Position numbers and translations under genes: made by a program. DNA of 64,000 nucleotides from Candidatus Magasanikiibacteriota bacterium (GTDB taxonomy: Bacteria > Patescibacteriota > Patescibacteriia > Magasanikbacterales > 2-02-FULL-50-9b). Location of the stretch: contig CAITMK010000003.1 of NCBI GenBank assembly GCA_903893485.1, forward strand, positions 9,922 to 73,921. The letters are read 5' to 3'. Shown here one piece after another: positions 3,001 through 62,215 of this stretch. The notes beneath the pieces are model-generated. The model was not told where the DNA came from and did not search any database. It was given only the letters and a program-made list of their open reading frames with translations. Numbering within the stretch: the stretch's first letter is position 1; every line of letters begins with the position of its first letter.

Positions 3001-4731
3001 AGAAACATTAATCAAATTAACATTAACAGCATGACCAATGTATAACGCATTCGTGCCGCCTGAAAGTGTAAAAAATAAATTTTGCAACGACAAATGGTCA
3101 ATACCATCGAAGCGCATCGGGCCAGCCTCATTTGGCGATCCAGTAACTGCAGATATCGAAGCAGATCCTGTGTATGGCCCAAAAATACCAAACATCGATG
3201 ACAGTTGCGTACTCGAGGTCATGCCTCCAAAGGTGTACATGCCAGAAGTTAAATCAATCGAATCACCATTACGAAGACCGGCGGTTGATGTTGCGATATA
3301 AAAAAGATCAAAAGCATCCACCGTGTTATAATCGATTGGATCACCATGACCAGCCCAACTGATATGAATATTTGCGCGGCGAACCCCGCTAAAGGCGCCA
3401 ATATCGTCGGTTCCGTTTACATCCAAGTAATCGCTCCATGGCGCAGGTTCCCAATCATCTGACGTTGAAATATCTTCTAATCGCATGAATGGATTTGATG
3501 TTTTATCCGTTCCATTTGGCGTAAACCCGCCAACTAAATCGCGGTATGGAATATTGAATCCATAAAACCCGTTGTAACCCTGCGTAATCGTAAGTGTTTG
3601 CGGCTGATTAAGTTGAAATGTTAATCCAGCGGTACCCGTTAAACTGCTCGACGCCATCTGCGCGGTAGGAATGAGCGGCTGCCCCTTAACTGAGGCGTAA
3701 TTATAAAATAAATTTTTTGAAATGGTGTATGATGCTGCGCCCGCGGCACCCATAATTTCTGGAGTGGCAACCGTAATAGCGGTTTCATTCCCCGTTGAAG
3801 AAGTCATGAACGTGTTATTTTCGATATCCATTGGAGCGCCCTGCTCGCTTCGAAACACAATAAAACCGTTCGTTAATGCAAATGGAGCTGAAAATACATT
3901 CCCCTTAAAAGTGATCGTAGCATTCCCAAAAATAGGATTATTTACTTGGTCCAATACGGTTCCTGTATAAAAGGTTTTATTGTTTGTAAACACAAAGGTT
4001 GCTGAATTATATCCCGTTGCCCCGTTACCATCAGTCGATCGATAATCAGTTAAATTGAAAGTATTATTATCAATGGTGAACGTACCAAGCGGTCCAGTGC
4101 CCTCAAAATTAATAAACGTTTTAAAAGAACCTGCGGGCGCACTAAAAGTATTATTGCTAATCGTTGCGTTTGTTGAAGTAGAAGCGTAAATCTGAAAATA
4201 ACCAGTGCTGCCGGTCACCAATGGCGATGTGAATGAATCTAAATTTATTGCTGATTGCGAAGCTGGGTCAAAAGTGATGTTGCTTACCGTAAAACCCGCG
4301 TTTGAACCCGCGGCAGTATTTCGATAAATTTGAAGTCTGCGCGCGTTACAATTTTGAACGCCACCCGCACCTGTTGTATTTAAATAAATTGTTGTGGATG
4401 CCGCGGTTGTGCCCAAATAAGCACCGCTACTTTCACAATCGATAACCACATCAGGCTGTGTCGCGGTAATTGTTGTTCCCGCTTCGGCCGTTGGATCGTA
4501 AGTTCCCTGCACGCGAATGGTGCCACCAACCCCAACAAAACTTGCGTCGCCTTCTGCCGCTGCAATCGTGGTGTAATCGCAACCACTTGAACACACCGTT
4601 ACCGACGCTGTTGCGTGCACCTTAAAAACTACAAAAAGTGCCCCGATAATCGCGACATATGAAAGAAAAATCGTGTACCAAACTTTTTCTTTTGGGCTTT
4701 CGACTTTACCTTTAAAAAAACCAAGATGCAT
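1..4731 (-). CDS. giant cell-surface protein, paralog 1 of 3 (partial; C-terminus runs off the window start)
   Basis: ATG at 4731 (rc of tgcat 4727-4731). N-terminus MHLGFFKGKVESPKEKVWYTIFLSYVAIIGALFVVFKVHA matches the N-termini of the two downstream paralogs. The rc of nt 1-300 encodes ...AAYMTGKTEDGQLTDL.../...RKRRKGWGMAYNAISKLPADLALVRI...DRDGRYQFFARPGNYRIEV... in the same frame as the ATG (4731 and 60 are both 0 mod 3). Only short ORFs lie on the + strand across the region. Confidence 0.8.
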   Translation of the reverse strand, partial: MHLGFFKGKVESPKEKVWYTIFLSYVAIIGALFVVFKVHATASVTVCSSGCDYTTIAAAEGDASFVGVGGTIRVQGTYDPTAEAGTTITATQPDVVIDCESSGAYLGTTAASTTIYLNTTGAGGVQNCNARRLQIYRNTAAGSNAGFTVSNITFDPASQSAINLDSFTSPLVTGSTGYFQIYASTSTNATISNNTFSAPAGSFKTFINFEGTGPLGTFTIDNNTFNLTDYRSTDGNGATGYNSATFVFTNNKTFYTGTVLDQVNNPIFGNATITFKGNVFSAPFALTNGFIVFRSEQGAPMDIENNTFMTSSTGNETAITVATPEIMGAAGAASYTISKNLFYNYASVKGQPLIPTAQMASSSLTGTAGLTFQLNQPQTLTITQGYNGFYGFNIPYRDLVGGFTPNGTDKTSNPFMRLEDISTSDDWEPAPWSDYLDVNGTDDIGAFSGVRRANIHISWAGHGDPIDYNTVDAFDLFYIATSTAGLRNGDSIDLTSGMYTFGGMTSSTQLSSMFGIFGPYTGSASISAVTGSPNEAGPMRFDGIDHLSLQNLFFTLSGGTNALYIGHAVNVNLINVSASINTGDTIFPHNVITLDSVNNSYISGVTTNYSNAAPTSTATSAYLINKTVFSKAGTDYNDSGAIGSPPNSALYFRNTGCDVQPISSSATDITSTVGSGTNDWNLALLSVSGFHLSVWAPNNLYPSAAAIVADPDCAGHGIAVDAFVPSAFTASAGTLTYNPSAVSGAGLTIVGGFDNPPAISHTTGLTINGAGLYFLNSSNNDIRDTTSTNAGCSVALDGASANNTLTRFDAVATSTGVQFCSNATGLLNNFVASNIMPTSTLFGPMASAVTSSVRVGVYVGERNGGAPVSGVPVTVSSYSGGSDTVTSDVTGFTPLTNYFNYNLISPPAFNFSTAATGIYLASSTIVSQVFDKEIIYFGLATTSAENGGSPSISSYLGPDAVTPAIQSFTINDGATVTTSTTVTLKLVATNAEQMGFSLSSDFSNAVVSSYQQAISYLLSGSLGVKRIYAIVKSPTNTFSAPTYQEITLISSSTPIEMVDAPTISMPTYVSTTTVSLAITYGANAAQMMISNSADFTGGVWEPATSTKKWFLQSGDGEKTVYIKVRSAMATESAITVGKTTLNTVVPSAPVIKAPTNNSHVTGGTVVFTGTADVKTNLLLLIETNSKEIVHVAVPVATDGTWSYAVPDALPVGVYKATAIASDIVGNTQQDINIFSVLAATPGVALVVNSPSDGATVTKTSVAASGTGQIGAKIIIVQNGITTYTTTVGSDANWNINLSLPAQDGVYSLEFRMLNQANDFLDGTQRSITLTQAVVIPPPVKKDILPPVVTNPTTPTVGIGGGTITTGGTSSTSSTTDVVSSTPIIIATPSSTQTTISNAISAVADTFSSPVSAATVTAVKAVSAQVSRSVTKAAVAVQQAVATPQVQITNQAVVVPAAAAVVAASVSTALNFSQVALYFRFLFTQPLFLLTRKRRKGWGMAYNAISKLPADLALVRIVDAESGRVVQSHVTDRDGRYQFFARPGNYRIEVDKPNFSFPAAYMTGKTEDGQLTDLYNGG

Positions 4732-24034: not shown

Positions 24035-24063
24035 TTCGAGGCAAGAATTTCAAACTATTTGAA

Positions 24064-24095
24064 AAGCCTGGGCTTGCCCAGGTCTTTTTGTTTTT
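24064..24095 (+). terminator. intrinsic terminator of clpP
   Basis: cctgggc-ttg-gcccagg hairpin followed by T5gT5. Confidence 0.7.
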
Positions 24096-24243
24096 CACGA
24101 AGGGGTCATCCGCAGGCATGGCGGGCCGGTGCCGCGCAGCATGCGCGGCGAGCCATGCCGAGGTCGAGCGTGATTTCCCGCCGGGGAAATCGACGCGACC
24201 CCTTCGAGGAAAACAAAAAGACCCAGATTGCTCTGGATCTTTC
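24084..24243. other. structured GC-rich intergenic element: ~24-bp outer inverted repeat enclosing three perfect hairpins; candidate small RNA or REP-like element
   Basis: Outer arms ctttttgtttttcacgaaggggtc / gaccccttcgaggaaaacaaaaag. Inner ggcatggc..gccatgcc, ccgcgc-agcatg-gcgcgg and gatttccc-gccg-gggaaatc, plus a 3' hairpin cccagattgctctgg. A CCCCTTCG motif recurs three times in the 436-bp clpP-VanW spacer. Confidence 0.5.
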
Positions 24244-24470
24244 AAAACTTTATACGTAGAAATTCGCGCTCAAGAAGATTTTTCCGAGATGGATTCGAGC
24301 AATAAAGCCCGAATGCCCCTTCGGGAAAAATCTCCATGCTTGTCGTGAGCGCGAGTTACTAAGCACAAACTTTGTCTCGGGTCATCTGGTGACCTCTCGG
24401 ACGGTGAAATATACCCTATAGCGGGTTCTTTGTCAAGTGGATAAATATTCGCCCTATTTTTAGCTAAAAA

Positions 24471-28633: not shown

Positions 28634-28717
28634 AGCGAATCATGTTTGACGTTTCTATAACTACGTGGTATTCTACACCCGCAATTTTTTATACGCAATT
28701 AGAGTTGCACAAAATCA

Positions 28718-28789
28718 GGTCTCATCGTCTAACGGTTAGGACACCACGCTTTCAATGTGGGAATAGGGGTTCGATTCCCCTTGGGACTA
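28718..28789 (+). tRNA. tRNA-Glu (anticodon UUC), no encoded CCA
   Basis: Cloverleaf folded by hand. Acceptor GGTCTCA/TGGGACT (with G-U pairs), D stem GTCT/GGAC, anticodon stem CCACG/TGTGG with loop CTTTCAA, T arm AGGGG-TTCGATT-CCCCT, discriminator A. Confidence 0.85.
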
Positions 28790-28790
28790 T

Positions 28791-28825
28791 AAAAATACGC
28801 CATCCGCAAGGGTGGTGTATTTTTA
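28791..28825 (+). terminator. intrinsic terminator after tRNA-Glu
   Basis: aaaaatacgccatcc-gcaa-gggtggtgtattttt: 15-bp stem (three G-U pairs), GCAA tetraloop, T5. Confidence 0.7.
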
Positions 28826-28839
28826 TAGTCTTACAATTT

Positions 28840-31984: not shown

Positions 31985-32197
31985 AATCCCCCCAATTGCC
32001 TTTCGGCAAATCTGGTATACCGTAAAATTACCGCCATGTCAAGATAATTCCGTGATTTTTTGGTATTTTTTTGATAACCACGAAGTAGCCGAAGCCCTTG
32101 ACAAAATCGACATATTACGTTATATCTATTACTACGCGCGGGAATTCTCCTTCGTGTTCTGTTCTTCACGGCCCGAGGGGCCAGAAAGGAGTTCGTC

Positions 32198-33883
32198 ATG
32201 CGATTGTTAATCGCGGTAGTTTCCCTCGTCGGCGCCGTGTGGTTGCCGATGGGATGTGGGAGCGATAGCAGTGCTATCACCCCCACCGATGCTGGTTCCG
32301 GAGATACCGGCAGCGACGTGGGCTTGCCCAATGCACCAACGCCGTGCGGTTCGGCCGCGGAGTGTCAGTACGAAGGAATGCAGAAAGAATGCCGCAAGGC
32401 TACCTGCGACCTCACGGCTGGTCACTGCGTGGTGAATCAAGCGGACGACGGCGACCAATGCATGGCCGGCAATGCCTGCTACGACAAAGGGACCTGCACC
32501 GCGGGCCAATGCGTCGTCGGGAAGGCCGTGCTGTGCGATGACGGAATCGCGTGCACCATCGACAGCTGCGACATCACGACCGGTTGCCTGCACAAGCCCC
32601 TCCAAGAGGGCGCGGACTGCGACGACGGCAACGTGTGTACGGTTGGCGATCAATGCACTAAGTTCGGCCTTTGCGCGGGCACCAAGCAAACCTGCGACGA
32701 CGGCGAGATCTGCACCAACGACTCGTGCAACCCGGTCAGCGGCGCGTGCGAAAACACGCCAACCAATGGCCCATGTGACGATGGCAAGGTCTGCACCAAC
32801 GACTCGTGTGTTGGTGGCAAATGCCTCGGCGTCGAAATCAAATGCGACGACGGCAACTTCTGCACCATCGACAAATGCGTCGAAGCCTTTGGCGGCTGTG
32901 TCGGCACCAACTCTTCCGGCGGACCGTGCAATGACGGCGACGGATGCACGGTGGGCGACACGTGCGACAGCGGTATCTGCAAATCGGGTACACCCCAAGT
33001 TTGTAACGACGGCAACGTCTGCACAGCGGAAAAGTGTTCATCGCCGAGCGGCACCTGTGTGTTCACCAAGTCCACCGAGACCCAGTGCAACGACGGTAAT
33101 CTATGCACGGAAAATGACCTGTGCGACACCGTGGCGCCGTGGGTGTGCAAAGGCGGCAAGCCGCTCGTGTGTGACGACGGTAACGTCTGCACCTCCGACA
33201 GCTGCACGGGCAATGGCGGCTGCGCATTTACGCCGAACAACGGCACGTGCGACGACAACAACTCGTGCACGGTGGGCGACACGTGCGTGGCCAAAGAGTG
33301 CCAGCCGAGCAACTTGCAGAAGTGCGACGACAACAACCCGTGCACCACGGACTCGTGTTCGCCAATCACGGGCTGCATCTTCGACGCCAATTCCATCAGC
33401 TGCACGGATGGCAACAGCTGCACGCTGGATGACAAGTGCGCGAACAAATCGTGCGTGGGCGTGGGTGTGGTCTGCAACGACAACAACCCGTGCACCACGG
33501 ACTGGTGTTCGCCGGACCTGGGTTGCCAGGCCGACAAGCTGTCCGTCAACGCAACGTGCAACGATGGCAACGGCTGCACGGGCCCGGACCTGTGCGATGG
33601 CGCTGGCAAATGCAGCGGCAAGACAATTTCGAATTGCGACGACGGCAATTCGTGCACGGACGACTCGTGCAATCCGACCAATGGTTCGTGCGTGAACAAA
33701 GCCAAGCTTGACGGCTCGGCCTGCACGGACAACAACGCGTGCAGCTCCGGCGACGCGTGCAAAGGTGGCATTTGTGCAGCCGTTGCCGTGGACTTGTGCA
33801 ACGACAACGTGACCTGCACCGTGGACATTTGCAATCCGGCCAACGGCGCGTGCTCCCACACGCTCGACCCGAACTGCAAGTAA
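32198..33883 (+). CDS. cysteine-rich tandem-repeat lipoprotein (about 13 ~38-aa CDDGNxCTxDxC...GC repeats)
   Basis: Strong SD (AAAGGAG) 7 nt before the ATG, signal peptide ending ...WLPMGCGS, periodic Cys spacing, about 62% GC. Many alternative-frame ORFs on both strands are artefacts of GC and repeat structure. Confidence 0.8.
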   Translation: MRLLIAVVSLVGAVWLPMGCGSDSSAITPTDAGSGDTGSDVGLPNAPTPCGSAAECQYEGMQKECRKATCDLTAGHCVVNQADDGDQCMAGNACYDKGTCTAGQCVVGKAVLCDDGIACTIDSCDITTGCLHKPLQEGADCDDGNVCTVGDQCTKFGLCAGTKQTCDDGEICTNDSCNPVSGACENTPTNGPCDDGKVCTNDSCVGGKCLGVEIKCDDGNFCTIDKCVEAFGGCVGTNSSGGPCNDGDGCTVGDTCDSGICKSGTPQVCNDGNVCTAEKCSSPSGTCVFTKSTETQCNDGNLCTENDLCDTVAPWVCKGGKPLVCDDGNVCTSDSCTGNGGCAFTPNNGTCDDNNSCTVGDTCVAKECQPSNLQKCDDNNPCTTDSCSPITGCIFDANSISCTDGNSCTLDDKCANKSCVGVGVVCNDNNPCTTDWCSPDLGCQADKLSVNATCNDGNGCTGPDLCDGAGKCSGKTISNCDDGNSCTDDSCNPTNGSCVNKAKLDGSACTDNNACSSGDACKGGICAAVAVDLCNDNVTCTVDICNPANGACSHTLDPNCK

Positions 33884-33907
33884 CCAAATTCTTCCTACCG
33901 GAAGTCC

Positions 33908-33948
33908 TCCCCCTACCGCATTCGTATCGCGGTTCGGGGAGTTTTTTT
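33908..33948 (+). terminator. intrinsic terminator after 32198..33883
   Basis: ctccccctaccgc...gcggttcggggag followed by T7. Confidence 0.55.
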
Positions 33949-33952
33949 ATAT

Positions 33953-33980
33953 TGACAAAACCAGACATTATTGCTAGAGT
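33953..33980 (+). promoter_or_regulatory. candidate promoter (TTGACA-16-TAGAGT) for 34026..35264
   Basis: Consensus -35 hexamer, 16-nt spacer, 4/6 -10. Confidence 0.45.
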
Positions 33981-34025
33981 GATTTATCACGCGAATCCAC
34001 GCGTGAATTACCCCTGGGGGGATCC

Positions 34026-35264
34026 ATGAAGTTCCTTGTTCCGGCTATCTTTGCCCTCCTTTTAGTGGGGGCAACGGGCTGCGGAGATACCGCCGCCCCA
34101 CACGCCGATGACGCGTCAGCTGACGCGAGCGGCGATGCAAACAAAGACGCCACGCTCGGCGATGCCTCGGACTTTGCTCCGGACACGCCAAACGCAAGCG
34201 ACAGCGTCGACATCGCAAATCAAGTCACGCCAGGCGCCAAGAACTGGCCTTGCAGTGTGAACAGTGATTGCGACTCCGGCTACTGCGCGGAATCGCAGAA
34301 CGGCAAGCTGTGCGCGGAGGCGTGCGTTGGAGACTGCTCGTTCGGGTTTGCTTGTCAGACCGTTTCCAATGTCAGCGGCGACATCACGCAGTTCTGCGTC
34401 TCCAAGTTCACGTTCCTGTGCAATCCGTGCGAACACAACACGGAGTGCAACAGCAACTCGAGCTCAAGCAACCGCTGCTTGGACAAAGGCCCTGAAGGAA
34501 TGTTCTGCGGCGTCTCATGCGAAAGCACCAAAGACTGCCCCGCGGGATACGCTTGCAACCAGTTCTCGGATGATACCGGGACGTTCCTGCAGTGCGTACC
34601 CAAGGGTGGCCAAACGTGCGAATGCAATCCGCGCGCCATGGAACTGAAGCCGCAGACCACGTGCTACGAGGCGGCGTCGCCAAGCACGTGCAAAGGCACG
34701 CGTCAGTGTGAAGCCGCGGGCCTTTCGGCCTGCGACATCAAAAAGTCGCCGGAGATCTGCGACGATAAGGACAACGATTGCAACGGTCTGACCGATGAAG
34801 GGCTCTGCGACGATGGCAATCCCTGCACCGCTGACAGCTGCAACTCGGACGGCTCCTGCAAACACGATCAGCTGCAGGGCACGCCCTGTGATGACGGCAG
34901 CGTTTGCACGACCAGCGACAAGTGCGCGGCAGGTTTCTGCGTTTCGGGCGCCACGCTGCTCTGCGACGACAACAATCTGTGCACGGACAACCTGTGTGAC
35001 CCGGTAAATGCTTGCATGTACCCGGCGAACAAAGCTCCGTGCAACGATGGCAATCAGTGCACCTTGGTGGACATGTGCAGCGAAAAAAAGTGCCTGGGAT
35101 CTGTGCCGCCGAATTGCGACGACAAGAATCCGTGTACCACCGACTTCTGCGATCCGACGCTCGGCTGCGTCCATCAGGCTGATACCAAAGTGGACGGTTC
35201 GCCCTGCGCTTCTGCCCCCGGCAGCATCGGCCAGTGCGTGAATGGCAAGTGTGCCCAAACCTAG
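34026..35264 (+). CDS. cysteine-rich lipoprotein with a MopE-like DxDNDCxGxxDEG motif and C-terminal CDDGNxCTxDxC repeats
   Basis: Signal peptide with LVGATGC lipobox; CDDKDNDCNGLTDEG motif; five or more C-terminal Cys repeats like those of 32198..33883; 62% GC. Confidence 0.8.
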   Translation: MKFLVPAIFALLLVGATGCGDTAAPHADDASADASGDANKDATLGDASDFAPDTPNASDSVDIANQVTPGAKNWPCSVNSDCDSGYCAESQNGKLCAEACVGDCSFGFACQTVSNVSGDITQFCVSKFTFLCNPCEHNTECNSNSSSSNRCLDKGPEGMFCGVSCESTKDCPAGYACNQFSDDTGTFLQCVPKGGQTCECNPRAMELKPQTTCYEAASPSTCKGTRQCEAAGLSACDIKKSPEICDDKDNDCNGLTDEGLCDDGNPCTADSCNSDGSCKHDQLQGTPCDDGSVCTTSDKCAAGFCVSGATLLCDDNNLCTDNLCDPVNACMYPANKAPCNDGNQCTLVDMCSEKKCLGSVPPNCDDKNPCTTDFCDPTLGCVHQADTKVDGSPCASAPGSIGQCVNGKCAQT

Positions 35265-35337
35265 ATTCCGGTCTGCTGAACACAGCGCCGGATCACCGCG
35301 GGGTCAGCCGCGTTTAACCAACAGTAATAGGTGTCCC

Positions 35338-35367
35338 GGGAGCTCTGACCAGCTCCCTATTTTTTTT
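35338..35367 (+). terminator. intrinsic terminator ending the GC-rich island
   Basis: gggagct-ctgacc-agctccc followed by T8. Confidence 0.7.
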
Positions 35368-35395
35368 AAAAATCCTGTGTTACACTAGTCGCACT

Positions 35396-36319
35396 ATGGA
35401 ACAGGCAACACAAAAACCACACGTTTTAATCATTGGCGCCGCTGGCCGCATCGGTCGTGCCATGGCGCACATTTTTTCACAGGCAAATGTAACTGATTTT
35501 GATTTGTGCGATAGTGATACGGCCAATTGCCCTGTTCAGCGTCCACTCGCCGAAAGCGCTCCCGAAGCTGACATTATCATCATGTGCGTTTATTCATGGG
35601 TAACCCGCGAGATACTTGAGCAAATTGCACCGCTTGTGAAAAAATCTGCTGTGATTGTATCAATGGCAAAAGGCATTGAAAAAGATTCCAACAAAACAAT
35701 GGATGTGGTTTTGGACGAAACAATCGGCGATCGCGCATCGTGGTGTGTAATGAGCGGACCAATGCTTGCGGAAGAAATTTTAGCAAACGGTGGAAGTGCG
35801 GGTGTTATCGCATCAAATTCAACGCGTGCGTTTGAAATTTTATCTGCATGGATGCTCCCACAAGATGTTATTTTATCCGCAAGTTCTGATGTGCGCGGCG
35901 TTGCACTTTCTGGTGTTTTAAAAAATGTGTATGTACTAACACTTGGCATTGCCGACGGATTAGAATGGAGTGCAAATCGCAGAGGTTGGCTACTTTCGCG
36001 CGCGGCGCATGAAATGCATTTGGTTATGGAAAAATTAGGTGGCGAACAAGAAACCACTGAAGGGCCCGCTGTTTTGGGCGATTTAGTTGCGTGCGCCTTT
36101 TCTCCGCTTTCGCGCAACCGTGCCACGGGTGACACGTTAGTCAAAACAGGTGAATTAAATCCAAAAAGCGAAGGCGCAAATTCACTTAATTCGCTTTTGA
36201 TTTTGCTTGGCGACGCAGCAAAACAATTTCCATTACTACAAGCAATCAAAGCTGTGGCACTTGATCATAAGTCAGCCCACGAAATTTTTGATCAAATGAT
36301 TAGCCGTCACGAAGTATGA
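35396..36319 (+). CDS. gpsA: NAD(P)H-dependent glycerol-3-phosphate dehydrogenase
   Basis: GAAGRIG Rossmann motif, KGIE, SGPMLAEEI (GPSFA.EV-like), LKNVYVLTLGI. Confidence 0.8.
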   Translation: MEQATQKPHVLIIGAAGRIGRAMAHIFSQANVTDFDLCDSDTANCPVQRPLAESAPEADIIIMCVYSWVTREILEQIAPLVKKSAVIVSMAKGIEKDSNKTMDVVLDETIGDRASWCVMSGPMLAEEILANGGSAGVIASNSTRAFEILSAWMLPQDVILSASSDVRGVALSGVLKNVYVLTLGIADGLEWSANRRGWLLSRAAHEMHLVMEKLGGEQETTEGPAVLGDLVACAFSPLSRNRATGDTLVKTGELNPKSEGANSLNSLLILLGDAAKQFPLLQAIKAVALDHKSAHEIFDQMISRHEV

Positions 36320-59198: not shown

Positions 59199-61295
59199 TT
59201 ATTCCTGATGCAAAATTTCTTCGAAACGCGCGATGCGTTCACGAAGTTCTGGGCTGTGCGCCAAAATTTCTGGCTCATTAAAAACTTTTTGTGCCGCTTT
59301 TTTCGCGCGTTCCCATACCTCGGGTGGCACGGCCAATAATTCTTCGTATTCAAAAAAACCGGATTGCAAAATTCCCCACACATCGCCGGAGCCGCGCATT
59401 TCTAAATCTTTTTCGGCGAGTTCGAAACCGTCGGAGATTTGTTCCATCAGACGCATTCTCTGTTCTGCAGCGGAAATCTGTGGCGCGCCCGACTCGCTCG
59501 GCCGCGAGTACGCTACAGCGTCGCTCGCCGACCGCGCCACAGATTTTGACGAACAGAGAAAGCAATACGATTGAACATCAGAACGGCCGACTCGACCTCT
59601 AAATTGATGAAGTTGCGCCAAACCAAATCGTTCAGCGCCCTCGATCCACATAACCGTTGCACCCGGAATATCCACGCCGACTTCGATAACCGCGGTTGCA
59701 ACTAAAACATCCAAGTCGCCGGCGCGAAATGCATCCATCACGGCCGCGCGATCTTTTGGTTTCAAGCGCCCGTGTACCAAACCAACGCGCGCCTGTGGAA
59801 ATGTTTCTTTGGAAATTTTTTCAAACACTTCGGTGGCAGATGCAACACCCAAAGAATCCGACGGATCAATCAGCGGTGTGACAACAAAAACTTGCTCACC
59901 CGCGGCAATGTGCTGTGCCACGAATTGCTGCGCCTTAGCGCGCGCTCCAGGGCCCACCACGCGCGTAATAACTGGCTTGCGGCCTGGTGGCATTTGTTTA
60001 ATTGAGCTAATTGCCAATGTACCGCTGGCCAAAAGTGCCAATGAGCGCGGAATTGGCGTTGCGGTCATGGATAAAAAGTGGGGCGTGTAGCCCGCGCCAT
60101 TTTTGTCTTTAATTTTTTTGCGCTGGCCCACGCCAAAACGGTGTTGTTCGTCAACGACCACCAAACCAACTTCGTCGAATTTCACACCATCTTGAATGAG
60201 TGCGTGTGTGCCAATAATTATTGCGGGGCCCGCGGGAATCGCCGCGCGCTTCCCTGCACCCACCATCAGCATCACCGGCACGTCCGTAAATAATTTTTTA
60301 AATGTTACAAAATGCTGCTCCGCCAAAAGCTGTGTTGGTGCCATAAATAAAACTTTCGCGCCGGCCGCCAAAACTGGATGCGCGGCCATCGCAGCCACAA
60401 CGGTTTTCCCAGAACCCACATCGCCTTGGAGCAAACGGTTCATCGGATGCGTCGCCGCGATATCCTGCGTAATTGCCCAGACTGCTTTTTTCTGATCATC
60501 GGTTAGTGCGAATGGAAGCACAGCAACCACGGCTTTTAAATCGTCAACAGAAAATTCAAACGCGCGTGCCTGCGCGGCCGCGTGAAAATCTTTGATCAAA
60601 CCAGATTGCAATTCCTGGAGCAGCGCGCGCTCGAATTGAAAACGGCGTAGCGCCAAACCAAGCTCATCAAAATCCGCTGGAAAATGCGCAGCGTGAAGTG
60701 CAGCTGCATAGTTCATCGCACCATCCACCAATTCCATTGGTAACCATTCACTAATTGCCGCGCCATATTTTTCAAAAGCCGCAGCCACAAGTGTACGCAG
60801 CTGCTTATGCGACAATCCTTCGGTGAGCGAATACAACGGCACAATTCGCGCGCTGTGGAGCGCCTCGGGTTTATTTGTTTTTTCGTATTGTGGACTTACC
60901 ATTTGCAAGCCAAAGCGATCCTGCTTTACCTCGCCCGTTAAAAAAATTTCTTCGCCAACGGCCAATGTTTTCGTCAGATACCCCTGACTAAACCAAATCA
61001 CGCGCACGCTGCCTGTGGCATCGCCAACCAAACCTTCCACAAGCGTCATCCCTGCCCGCTTAGCCGCGCGGCGCGAGCGGAGCTGCTGCACACGCACACG
61101 CACGGTGGCGCTGTCACCCGCGGCCAATTCTGCCACCGGCGTAATCGCCCGATGATCTTCGTACCGAAATGGCAAATGCAAAAATAAATCCTGAACCGTT
61201 TTCACGTCCATTTTTTCCAAATATTTGGCAATCTTTTCCCCGCAGCCTGGGATCGTGGTGACGGGCTGGGTGAGTAAAACGGAGGTGTCTGACAT
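59199..61295 (-). CDS. recG: ATP-dependent DNA helicase RecG
   Basis: 698 aa; wedge domain; helicase motifs GDVGSGKT, DEQHRFG and QxxGRVGR. Confidence 0.9.
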   Translation of the reverse strand: MSDTSVLLTQPVTTIPGCGEKIAKYLEKMDVKTVQDLFLHLPFRYEDHRAITPVAELAAGDSATVRVRVQQLRSRRAAKRAGMTLVEGLVGDATGSVRVIWFSQGYLTKTLAVGEEIFLTGEVKQDRFGLQMVSPQYEKTNKPEALHSARIVPLYSLTEGLSHKQLRTLVAAAFEKYGAAISEWLPMELVDGAMNYAAALHAAHFPADFDELGLALRRFQFERALLQELQSGLIKDFHAAAQARAFEFSVDDLKAVVAVLPFALTDDQKKAVWAITQDIAATHPMNRLLQGDVGSGKTVVAAMAAHPVLAAGAKVLFMAPTQLLAEQHFVTFKKLFTDVPVMLMVGAGKRAAIPAGPAIIIGTHALIQDGVKFDEVGLVVVDEQHRFGVGQRKKIKDKNGAGYTPHFLSMTATPIPRSLALLASGTLAISSIKQMPPGRKPVITRVVGPGARAKAQQFVAQHIAAGEQVFVVTPLIDPSDSLGVASATEVFEKISKETFPQARVGLVHGRLKPKDRAAVMDAFRAGDLDVLVATAVIEVGVDIPGATVMWIEGAERFGLAQLHQFRGRVGRSDVQSYCFLCSSKSVARSASDAVAYSRPSESGAPQISAAEQRMRLMEQISDGFELAEKDLEMRGSGDVWGILQSGFFEYEELLAVPPEVWERAKKAAQKVFNEPEILAHSPELRERIARFEEILHQE

Positions 61296-61308
61296 GTCGC
61301 TATTGTAA

Positions 61309-61414
61309 CATATAAATTGATTATGTCCTCGAGAGAGCGCTTCGCTACTCGCAACTAAAGTTGCGAGCTCCGCGTGCGGGTCCAGTCTCTCTCGGATATA
61401 ATCAATTTATATTG
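61309..61414. repeat. nested-palindrome element A (~27-bp outer inverted repeat plus central cgcaactaaagttgcg hairpin)
   Basis: Arms catataaattgattatgtcctcgagagag / ctctctcggatataatcaatttatattg; central ctcgcaac-taaa-gttgcgag; lies between the recG start and tRNA-Arg. Confidence 0.6.
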
Positions 61415-61478
61415 ACGTATCGGCATACGGCACTTTTTAACCCCTCCGTCACCACGGATCGGATACATTTTTGGAAAC

Positions 61479-61585
61479 AAAAAATCCTAATGCTTCTGAA
61501 AGAGACTTGAACCCGAACCGGAGAGCGCGCAACTTTAGTTGCGCATCGCGACCCGGCGTCTCTTGAAGAAGTATTAGGATTTTTT
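61479..61585. repeat. nested-palindrome element B, homologous to element A (about 75% in the core), abutting the tRNA-Arg 3' end
   Basis: Arms aaaaaatcctaatgcttctgaaagagac / gtctcttgaagaagtattaggatttttt; central gcgcaac-ttta-gttgcgc; shared core gagagcgc..gcaact..agttgcg..cgcg..gtctct. Confidence 0.6.
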
Positions 61586-61661
61586 GGTGCACCCGAGACG
61601 ACTTGAACGTCTGACCCTCAGCTCCGCAAGCTGATGCTCTATCCATCTGAGCTACGGGTGC
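61585..61661 (-). tRNA. tRNA-Arg with anticodon GCG (ACG-family body), CCA encoded
   Basis: rc reads GCACCCGTAGCTCAGATGGATAGAGCATCAGCTTGCGGAGCTGAGGGTCAGACGTTCAAGTCGTCTCGGGTGCACCA, a canonical cloverleaf with anticodon loop TTGCGGA. Confidence 0.8.
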
Positions 61662-61696
61662 ATAAATGATTGCCTGACTATTCTAGCACAGCCTTT

Positions 61697-62215
61697 CTAA
61701 AACTTCAAGACCTTCTCCAAAACATCGCCCAAAGGCTCTTCTACTTGGGTTTTGTCTTCCCGGACGAACCGCAAAAGCGTCTCGCGGACCTCATTCGGGT
61801 CTTCGTCTTCCAGCGGAATAGAAAGCCGTGGCGACGTGGCACTTTTGAACGTGATATATAAACTTTTGACCACACCTGGTTCAAAAACAATGAAAAAACG
61901 GTCGACTTCGAGGTATGGGTACAAAAATCCGCGCCACACCACGCCTTTGTCGGTAATGCCAAACTGCGTCAGGCCCGGCTCTTTGGTCTCGTGGAACAAA
62001 AAAATGACCGCGATTAAAATTAAAATAAACGCAAATAAATAATTATCGGTGTAGAGCGCGTACCCAATCGTTGCAAGTAAAAAAATGCTGGCCGTAATGT
62101 ACCACCGGGGTGTGTGCGGATATTTGGTATATTCCGGGATATCCCACACGTGATAAATCGTGTTTCCAAATTGATTGACAAGGGGCTCTGGCATATGATG
62201 ACAAAAGTATAACAT
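61697..62215 (-). CDS. hypothetical membrane protein
   Basis: ATG at 62215 (MLYFCHHMPEP...) gives 172 aa with two TMs. The track's longer form runs antisense through tRNA-Ser and was trimmed. Confidence 0.55.
   Translation of the reverse strand: MLYFCHHMPEPLVNQFGNTIYHVWDIPEYTKYPHTPRWYITASIFLLATIGYALYTDNYLFAFILILIAVIFLFHETKEPGLTQFGITDKGVVWRGFLYPYLEVDRFFIVFEPGVVKSLYITFKSATSPRLSIPLEDEDPNEVRETLLRFVREDKTQVEEPLGDVLEKVLKF

Follow-up and report, generated by a model that had tools for sequence, protein, structure and literature searches.

A putative, expanded terminator hairpin of tRNA-Arg and a related inverted element upstream of recG in a Candidatus Magasanikiibacteriota bacterium

The stretch of DNA analysed here (the window) is 64,000 nucleotides long, and its recG gene, on the minus strand, has its closest relatives in Candidatus Magasanikiibacteriota (Patescibacteria/CPR), as judged by homologue comparison. 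In the direction of the minus strand the locus consists of a divergent tRNA-Ser gene, a small gene, tRNA-Arg(GCG), element B, a 65-nt spacer, element A and recG. The features of this locus and of the loci compared with it are listed in Table 1. The order tRNA-Arg, B, A, recG, which had been given in an earlier note made from the sequence alone, is borne out by tRNA prediction and the gene map. Three independent assemblies of the same genome (L001, L038 and L039) take the sampled genome to 68 kb. They are 100% identical across the A/B region, and comparison at the strain level is thus uninformative. The sister species is represented by contig L002, whose RecG protein is 82% identical. The anticodon of tRNA-Arg is GCG at every one of these Patescibacteria loci. 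Type IV secretion-like genes (PrgI, TraC-like and VirB4/TraG-like DUF87) are located past the right end of the window (L038, 1-4238) and in the left flanks of L031 and L040, and are syntenic with the tRNA-Ser/tRNA-Arg/recG block in several relatives. A GC-rich island of the window (32000-36000, 55-58% GC versus about 45% elsewhere) encodes two proteins with Dicty_CTDC cysteine-rich repeats (32198-33883 and 34026-35264).

Table 1. Positions of the features discussed. Positions are those of the window unless a contig is named.
Feature	Position	Strand	Description and basis
recG	59199-61295	-	Pfam RecG_wedge/DEAD/Helicase_C and homologues
Promoter-like site of recG	61302-61329	-	AGGACA-16-TACAAT with TG; consensus scan; its spacer is the left arm of A
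Element A, nested hairpin	61310-61412	+	27-nt arms 61310-61336/61386-61412, 89% complementary; fold
Outer arms of A	61310-61328 and 61394-61412	+	Inverted repeat and fold
Core of A, 63 nt	61331-61393	+	Paralogue of the B core in opposite orientation; apex hairpin 61348-61367
A-B spacer, 65 nt	61413-61477		61431-61461 copies recG codons ~6-15 in inverted orientation and is riddled with indels
U-rich tract 3' of B on the tRNA strand	about 61487-61473	-	GGAUUUUUUGUUUCC; direct sequence reading
Element B, nested hairpin, 109 nt	61478-61586	-	29-nt arms 61478-61506/61558-61586, 90% complementary; fold
Outer arms of B	61478-61497 and 61567-61586	-	AAAAAATCC..GGATTTTTT; inverted repeat and fold
Core of B, 65-nt GC-rich rod	61500-61564	-	Fold; apex hairpin 61527-61544; flanks TC/TC
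tRNA-Arg, anticodon GCG	61585-61661	-	Encoded CCA 61585-61587; ARAGORN; Rfam tRNA match, 64.6 bits
Promoter-like site for tRNA-Arg	61680-61708	-	TTGAAG-17-TAGAAT with TG; consensus scan; consensus-level match only
Element C	24081-24223		27-nt arms, 93% complementary, being the U-tracts of two convergent terminators
Hairpin after tRNA-Arg, L003			AAATAAAAACCCCTT, loop ttacac, GAAGGGATTTTTATTT
Hairpin after tRNA-Arg, L031			AAATTAAAAAATCCTATC, loop ctcagc, GATAGGGTTTTTTAATTT
Hairpin after tRNA-Arg, L015			AAATTTAAAATCCTCACC, loop cgtg, TGGTGGGGATTTTAAATTT
Nested hairpin, L002	3408-3557		AT-rich stem, GC-rich unrelated core
Triple-nested hairpin, L029	12838-12996		Outermost arm extends into the 3' end of the reading frame upstream
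Nested hairpin, L037	15897-16031		AT-rich stem, GC-rich unrelated core
Soil doublets, L022	1958-2024, 3494-3592
Soil doublet, L024	5396-5605
Soil doublet, L025	2212-2284
Soil doublet, L026	6233-6310
Soil doublet, L027	1762-1833
Soil doublets, L021 and L023

Only three inverted repeats in the 64-kb window, namely A, B and element C, combine arms of at least 27 nt with at least 49 nt of spacer. When folded as RNA, A reaches -49.5 kcal/mol on the plus strand and -47.5 kcal/mol on the minus strand, and B reaches -55.8 and -50.6 kcal/mol respectively. Shuffled A and B sequences average about -23 to -26 kcal/mol (z = -7 to -8.3), and none of 200 shuffles folds as well. Both structures are real and well outside what chance would produce, and the two nested-palindrome elements of about 105 bp described in the earlier note do exist, as inverted repeats at 61310-61412 and 61478-61586 with a folding z of about -8. 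In each element, an AT-rich outer stem of 19-20 bp leads through either a TC bulge or a 2x2 internal loop (UC/UC) to a GC-rich core of 63-65 nt. Arms of 27-29 nt are present, in agreement with the outer repeat of about 27 bp that had been reported, but they are not a single repeat unit: in each, the AT-rich stem is joined by a 7-bp basal helix that belongs to the core (GAGAGAG/CTCTCTC in A and AAGAGAC/GTCTCTT in B), and the TC bulge or the 2x2 loop separates the two. Both cores fold into a common rod consisting of a basal helix, short GC helices, an apex hairpin and a 3' bulge of 8-10 nt. The short helix of the B core is CCGG/CCGG and its bulge is 10 nt long. The apex hairpin CGCAACTAAAGTTGCG is identical in A and B, and the consensus of the two apices is (C/G)(T/C)CGCAAC-TAAA-GTTGCG(A/G)(G/C). 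The apex had been read as gcaact(n4)agttgc, but the sequence is actually GCAAC-TAAA-GTTGC, with a tetraloop on a stem of 7-8 bp, of which these 5 bp are the core. Comparison of the outer arms shows no relation between those of A and those of B; that they differ had been stated.

The A core on the plus strand and the B core on the minus strand are identical at 52 of 65 positions (80%) with four gap columns in a hand alignment. The local alignment score of this comparison corresponds to z = 15.7, whereas that of the same-strand comparison corresponds to z = 4.3, and the two cores also come out of a repeat search as an inverted repeat of 40 nt with 78% complementarity. The cores are therefore homologous in opposite orientation, and are not arranged in tandem as the earlier note had it. 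The shared pattern that was seen on one strand arises because the cores are internally palindromic. Across the apex hairpin with its 3' flank, A and B agree at 20 of 21 positions, so that this part is nearly invariant, and the rest of the core has diverged. Comparison of the folds identifies two pairs that differ on both sides and yet stay paired, one changing from G-C to A-T in the basal helix and the other from T-A to G-C in the apex, so that helices P1 and P4 are kept. These compensatory changes suggest that the structure is under some selection. A derivation of the core from tRNA was considered and rejected: the sequence GTTCAAGTC of B matches the T-arm of tRNA-Arg, but with p = 0.018 among 12 comparisons, and the A core gives no significant match.

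The B hairpin begins directly at the 3' end of tRNA-Arg. Its stem starts at 61586 and takes in the last two nucleotides of the encoded CCA (61585-61586), rather than starting after the CCA as previously described. The stem is followed on the tRNA strand by a U-rich tract, the first six U's of which also pair with the upstream A-tract. The A-tract lies on the opposite side of B, which makes the hairpin symmetric and bidirectional in form. A plain hairpin is present directly 3' of tRNA-Arg(GCG) in seven relatives (L003, L015, L031, L011, L007, L040 and L042), with a stem of 12-18 bp, a loop of 4-6 nt, and an A-tract and a U-tract at its flanks; those of L040, L042, L011 and L007 are similar to the ones given in Table 1. 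The outer stem of B (CAAAAAATCCTAATACTTCT/AGAAGCATTAGGATTTTTTG, followed by UUUUUUGUUU on the tRNA strand) is recognisably the same hairpin as that of L031, and is homologous to the hairpins that follow tRNA-Arg in L002, L031, L015 and L003. The suggestion that these structures are linked to the tRNA is therefore right for B, because its outer stem and U-tract are conserved after tRNA-Arg in the relatives, both in position and in sequence. B also has much more structure than a terminator needs, as was pointed out, with a GC-rich module of 65 nt where the relatives have a loop of 4-6 nt.

Among the relatives examined, a large GC-rich insert in the loop is present only in the window species and its sister L002. 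The outer stem of the L002 hairpin (ATAAAAAATCCAATACCTTTT/AAAAGGCATTGGATTTTTTAT) is the same as that of B, with paired indels and paired substitutions, and the two hairpins have in common an A.C mismatch and a TC/TC junction. The apical domain of L002 is 108 nt long and Y-shaped, and it is not alignable to the B core (no significant similarity); a weak match of 18/21 positions has p = 0.04 before correction. Neutral DNA is saturated at 82% protein identity, and the cores of B and L002 could therefore share an origin and have diverged, instead of having been inserted independently. From these comparisons, the stem of B is conserved and selected, and its apical insert is lineage-specific and fast-evolving, or alternatively was acquired twice. 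The sole stem mismatch in A, B and the L002 hairpin reads as G.U on the plus strand of the window, or on the corresponding strand of L002, and as A.C on the tRNA strand, which slightly favours selection at the RNA level on the strand opposite to the tRNA.

B resembles intrinsic bidirectional tRNA terminators in that it starts within the CCA, has its stem between an A-tract and a U-tract, and is conserved at orthologous loci. It differs from them in its loop, which is 69 nt long (a structured rod of 65 nt with 58% GC, plus the TC junctions) instead of 3-8 nt, in its stem, which next to the U-tract is AT-rich instead of compact and GC-rich, and in its total length of 109 nt. The consensus terminator scan calls no terminator at B, because the loop exceeds 8 nt. 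B is probably the Rho-independent-type terminator and 3'-end hairpin of tRNA-Arg, with a predicted termination activity.

Element A is absent from all relatives examined. It overlaps the promoter-like site of recG. From the end of the -10 box of recG to the ATG, the distance is 6 nt in the window, in L002 (~3975-3992) and in L003 (~930-947), and 5 nt in L031. The recG mRNA is probably leaderless, and A is probably located upstream of its transcription start, because the -10 box ends so close to the ATG. The spacer between A and B contains a fragment that matches the 5' end of recG (61250-61279) in inverted orientation. In the alignment, the reverse complement of 61431-61461 reads CGATCCGTGGTGACGGAG--GGGT---TAAAA and recG 61250-61279 reads GGATC-GTGGTGACGG-GCTGGGTGAGTAAAA, and a further collinear block, TTTCCAAA, is located at 61470-61477. 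The local alignment of the spacer with recG has z = 6.4, none of 1000 shuffles scores as well, and it is the best match of the spacer in the whole window. The spacer fragment must be the copy, because the 5' end of recG encodes a conserved protein. The order along the DNA is accordingly the recG 5' end (a), the reverse complement of the B core (d'), the reverse complement of the recG 5' end (a') and the B core (d), and A forms the centre of a decayed palindrome that spans about 61213-61480. In one reading of the alignment, about 18 nt have been deleted between two ACGG direct repeats; other aligners place several small indels instead. Inverted similarity in the flank just outside the arms of A is not significant (p = 0.87), and a duplication model therefore requires later decay. 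No inverted similarity is detected in the outer flanks of B.

Interleaved reverse-complement copies at a short distance are an outcome of replication template switching or of hairpin-primed (fold-back) synthesis, followed by deletions. The A/B locus resembles such duplications in that nearby sequence recurs twice as its reverse complement, at a distance of about 170-190 nt and interleaved as a-d'-a'-d, and this order points to a local inverted duplication or a template switch. It also resembles palindromes whose centre is revised, since the palindrome at A has decayed through deletions, in one reading between the two ACGG repeats. It differs in that the centre at A is an asymmetric structured core and not a simple loop. 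The topic is treated in a review of non-B DNA (PMC12887540) and in a paper on small inverted triplications (PMC13334657). A is most likely the product of a local inverted duplication, and as such would be a by-product and not an independent gene or a transposed element.

The ancestral state would have been the AT-rich stem of B with its flanking A- and U-tracts. In the lineage leading to the window species and its sister, a GC-rich self-folding module would have taken over the apical loop. Such a module may bring the halves of the old stem together, so that the hairpin closes beside the U-tract and presumably terminates transcription. An inverted duplication, by replication template switching or by hairpin-primed synthesis, would then have set a reverse-complement copy of the B core beside the recG promoter, and the same event would have copied the recG promoter and 5' end, inverted, on the far side of the copied core. 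Later deletions would have left the 19-bp stem formed by the arms of A and the degraded recG fragment in the spacer. This joint explanation, in which B is a terminator with an acquired GC-rich module and A is the by-product of its local inverted duplication, is the one that we consider probable. The duplication or template-switch model is the best available and not a demonstrated one; we infer the mechanism of origin from the arrangement of the copies, and the cores would be nearly neutral. If A acts at all on the tRNA strand, it may at most, speculatively, serve as a back-up hairpin or as an insulator between the strongly transcribed tRNA and the leaderless recG promoter. Equally speculatively, the spacer in a read-through RNA could pair with recG codons 6-15.

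Alternatively, the 65-nt core may be a small non-autonomous mobile element (REP/REPIN- or MITE-like) that enters AT-rich hairpin loops, A and B being two insertions of it. The same core is found in two unrelated outer stems in opposite orientations, it has terminal inverted repeats of 6-7 bp, it is flanked by TC..TC in B, its flanks in A are compatible with the same, and the junction recurs in L002, the loop of B is empty in seven relatives, and unrelated GC-rich cores fill other hairpins of the clade (C, L029 and L037). The TC flanks, on the other side, are of low complexity and are located within GA/TC-rich ends, and transposition leaves the inverted recG fragment beside A unexplained. When a profile built from the two cores was searched against the window with L001, L038 and L039 (68 kb, about 7% of a roughly 1-Mb genome) and against the relatives, no third copy was detected in the 68 kb, in about 152 kb of Magasanikiibacteriota-like relatives or in about 97 kb of other Patescibacteria (about 250 kb of relatives), so that the core is limited in this DNA to two copies 170 nt apart. 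No transposase, recombinase or REP-associated tyrosine transposase (RAYT) is found among the 38 reading frames of the window scanned against Pfam, and collections of plasmid, phage and viral sequences give no match to the elements. These results do not support the suggestion that A and B belong to a family of REP/MITE-like repeats, but with about 7% of the genome sampled, a dispersed family of low copy number could still exist. A lack of other copies and of pairing conserved in relatives had been named as what would refute the earlier reading; in the sampled DNA the core lacks both, and the outer stem of B is the part that is conserved. We regard a mobile core as unlikely.

A scan of metagenomes with the pattern CGCAACTWWWGTTGCGNGCTC returned nine contigs, all of high or middle GC content and several with 65-69% GC, and none of them is a CPR copy. 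The contigs carry intergenic doublets of about 75 nt of the form GGAGCGCG-hairpin-...-hairpin-CGCGCTCC, with hairpin tips that are not alike within a doublet, and L024 carries a 63-nt tandem array at its end. These doublets, on contigs from soil, look like REPINs as defined by Bertels and Rainey (PMC3116915). The inner part of B matches L024 at 33 of 35 positions with a 2-nt gap, which is more than the search pattern imposed; this match to a REPIN-looking family is in favour of a mobile core, but is itself partly imposed by the pattern. The soil doublets may be related to the CPR cores or may be convergent GC-rich hairpins, and are a lead only. The cores of A and B are like REPs and REPINs (PMC3116915) in being short, GC-rich, extragenic hairpins that form an inverted pair, in having a short conserved motif, GGAG, 5' of the hairpin on one strand, and in their resemblance to the doublets of the soil contigs. 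They are unlike them in that they are not over-represented in the sampled DNA, are accompanied by no RAYT there, lack a GTAG motif, and are located 152 nt apart, each in its own unrelated stem, and not in one hairpin with a short spacer. They differ from MITEs in the sampled DNA by lacking multiple copies and a related insertion sequence or transposase. Nothing relevant came up when the literature was searched for the apex sequence or for REP elements of CPR bacteria. The very small dispersed repeats of cyanobacteria (SDRs, mentioned in PMC3116915), which insert into stem-loops, and the GC clusters of yeast mitochondria are multi-copy families with a recognisable consensus. Like the cores described here, they are GC-rich palindromic modules in AT-rich or stem-loop contexts that extend hairpins and give nested structures; in contrast, each core here stands alone, the A/B pair excepted.

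The cores form 40-nt inverted repeats with 78% complementarity around a 152-bp segment beside a promoter, and they might serve as recombination sites in an invertible DNA switch through which the terminator and the recG promoter are toggled. An identity of 78% is low for recombination sites, the neighbouring genes include no recombinase, and the three assemblies L001, L038 and L039 all have the segment in one orientation with 100% identity. We consider such a switch extremely improbable.

A and B may also be paralogous structured RNAs (small RNAs or cis-acting 3'/5' elements), whose rod-like core binds a protein or an RNA. The extreme folding z-scores, the near-invariant apex hairpin with its 3' flank in an otherwise diverged core, and the two compensatory pairs that preserve P1 and P4 are consistent with this possibility, and B is certainly transcribed, at least partly, together with tRNA-Arg. 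Because the copies are reverse complements, however, transcription from one direction yields complementary and not homologous RNAs, and this disfavours a shared sequence-specific RNA function. A is located between the terminator and the recG promoter and has no convincing promoter of its own in the consensus scan, and the core is missing in every relative examined. The strand preference is inconsistent, since the G.U of the outer stem favours the plus strand and a U.G at the apex of B favours the minus strand. A search of Rfam with A and B at E <= 10 gives nothing beyond a match of chance level to HPnc0260 (23.9 bits versus a gathering score of 59, E = 4.9), which overlaps B and the tRNA; a known ribozyme or small RNA was rejected on this basis. 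The idea of conserved small structured RNAs, also raised in the earlier note, is thus not supported, and we assign only a small probability to paralogous RNAs. Rfam likewise gives no match for element C, for the hairpins of L002, L029 and L037, or for the soil doublets.

The apex GCAAC-N4-GTTGC was also considered as a dimeric repressor operator for recG (Cheo-box-like, LexA-type), the hairpins being incidental. The operator core of LexA of the Cheo type is GAAC-N4-GTTC. The 16-nt sequence is identical in A and B, has an architecture like that of the GAAC-N4-GTTC boxes, and lies upstream of a DNA-repair gene, and sites with at most three mismatches are enriched in the window (11 found versus 1.1 expected). 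Four of these 11 sites, however, are the two sites themselves counted on both strands, and five of the other seven are located in reading frames of a rough ORF map; of the remaining two, the one at 28694 is beside tRNA-Glu in a probably spurious frame, and the one at 4531 is outside any mapped frame. The motif is CAAC/GTTG, with C where the LexA box has a conserved G, the copy in B is 250 nt from recG and inside the terminator, and the motif is missing upstream of recG in the relatives. The operator, which is very improbable, is rejected because most of the other near-matches to the apex motif are located within reading frames of the rough map. The near-copy of the apex palindrome at 28694-28709, CGCAATTAGAGTTGCA, is located 9 nt upstream of tRNA-Glu (28718-28789), which is followed by a terminator with a 21-bp stem (28785-28830).

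Hairpins with AT-rich stems and GC-rich centres are found at other sites of this clade. Element C has a Y-shaped core of 89 nt with 72% GC and folds at -91.8 kcal/mol (z = -8.8). At its site, the element is absent in L036 and only a short AT hairpin is present in L037; its flanks (24044-24265) show a weak extended palindrome (p = 0.04). The site of the triple-nested hairpin of L029 is empty in the window and in L033. The cores of A/B, C, L002 and L029 have no similarity to each other when compared, apart from the weak match between B and L002 (p = 0.04 uncorrected). A and B are one instance of a broader, undescribed habit of this clade, in which AT-rich stems carry unrelated GC-rich centres.

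If the terminator and by-product reading of B and A is true, B represents a known type, the tRNA terminator, in a form that is expanded and unusual, and the lesson is mainly one of caution: a striking structure of 105 nt beside a tRNA can be an ordinary terminator with a lineage-specific apical module, and an apparent paralogue of a structured element can be rearrangement debris. The pattern recurs in the clade, in some cases at the centre of larger decayed palindromes, and bears on the evolution of terminators and intergenic structures in very small genomes. A further and decidedly doubtful proposal is that Magasanikiibacteriota carry an undescribed class of GC-rich self-folding modules, which would colonise, or be captured in, the apical loops of AT-rich terminator hairpins and then seed the outward growth of palindromes by hairpin-primed copying of the flanking DNA; examples would be the 5' end of recG next to A, and at C the convergent terminators that surround it as a pair. 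If true, the class would be a tiny element, mobile or 'parasitic', of a new kind, or else would give reduced genomes a new route to intergenic RNA structure and terminators. Horizontal transfer may connect it with the GGAGCGCG-hairpin doublets, in which case high-GC soil bacteria could be hosts.

Two other structures were noted in the course of the comparison. A candidate conserved small RNA gene is located on the minus strand of the window at 24205-24436, where clpP and a VanW-family gene flank it. Its promoter, TTGACA-17-TATATT (24436-24408), is strong, and it also has a canonical terminator (24243-24216) and a rod-like conserved block of about 130 nt (24255-24363). It has no match in Rfam, is present in L035, L036 and L037, and shows compensatory changes on both sides in 9 of 51 predicted pairs in three species. 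In L005, a Falkowbacteria relative, a 165-bp AT-rich palindrome with 42-nt arms of 93% complementarity is located immediately upstream of recG (2618-2782).
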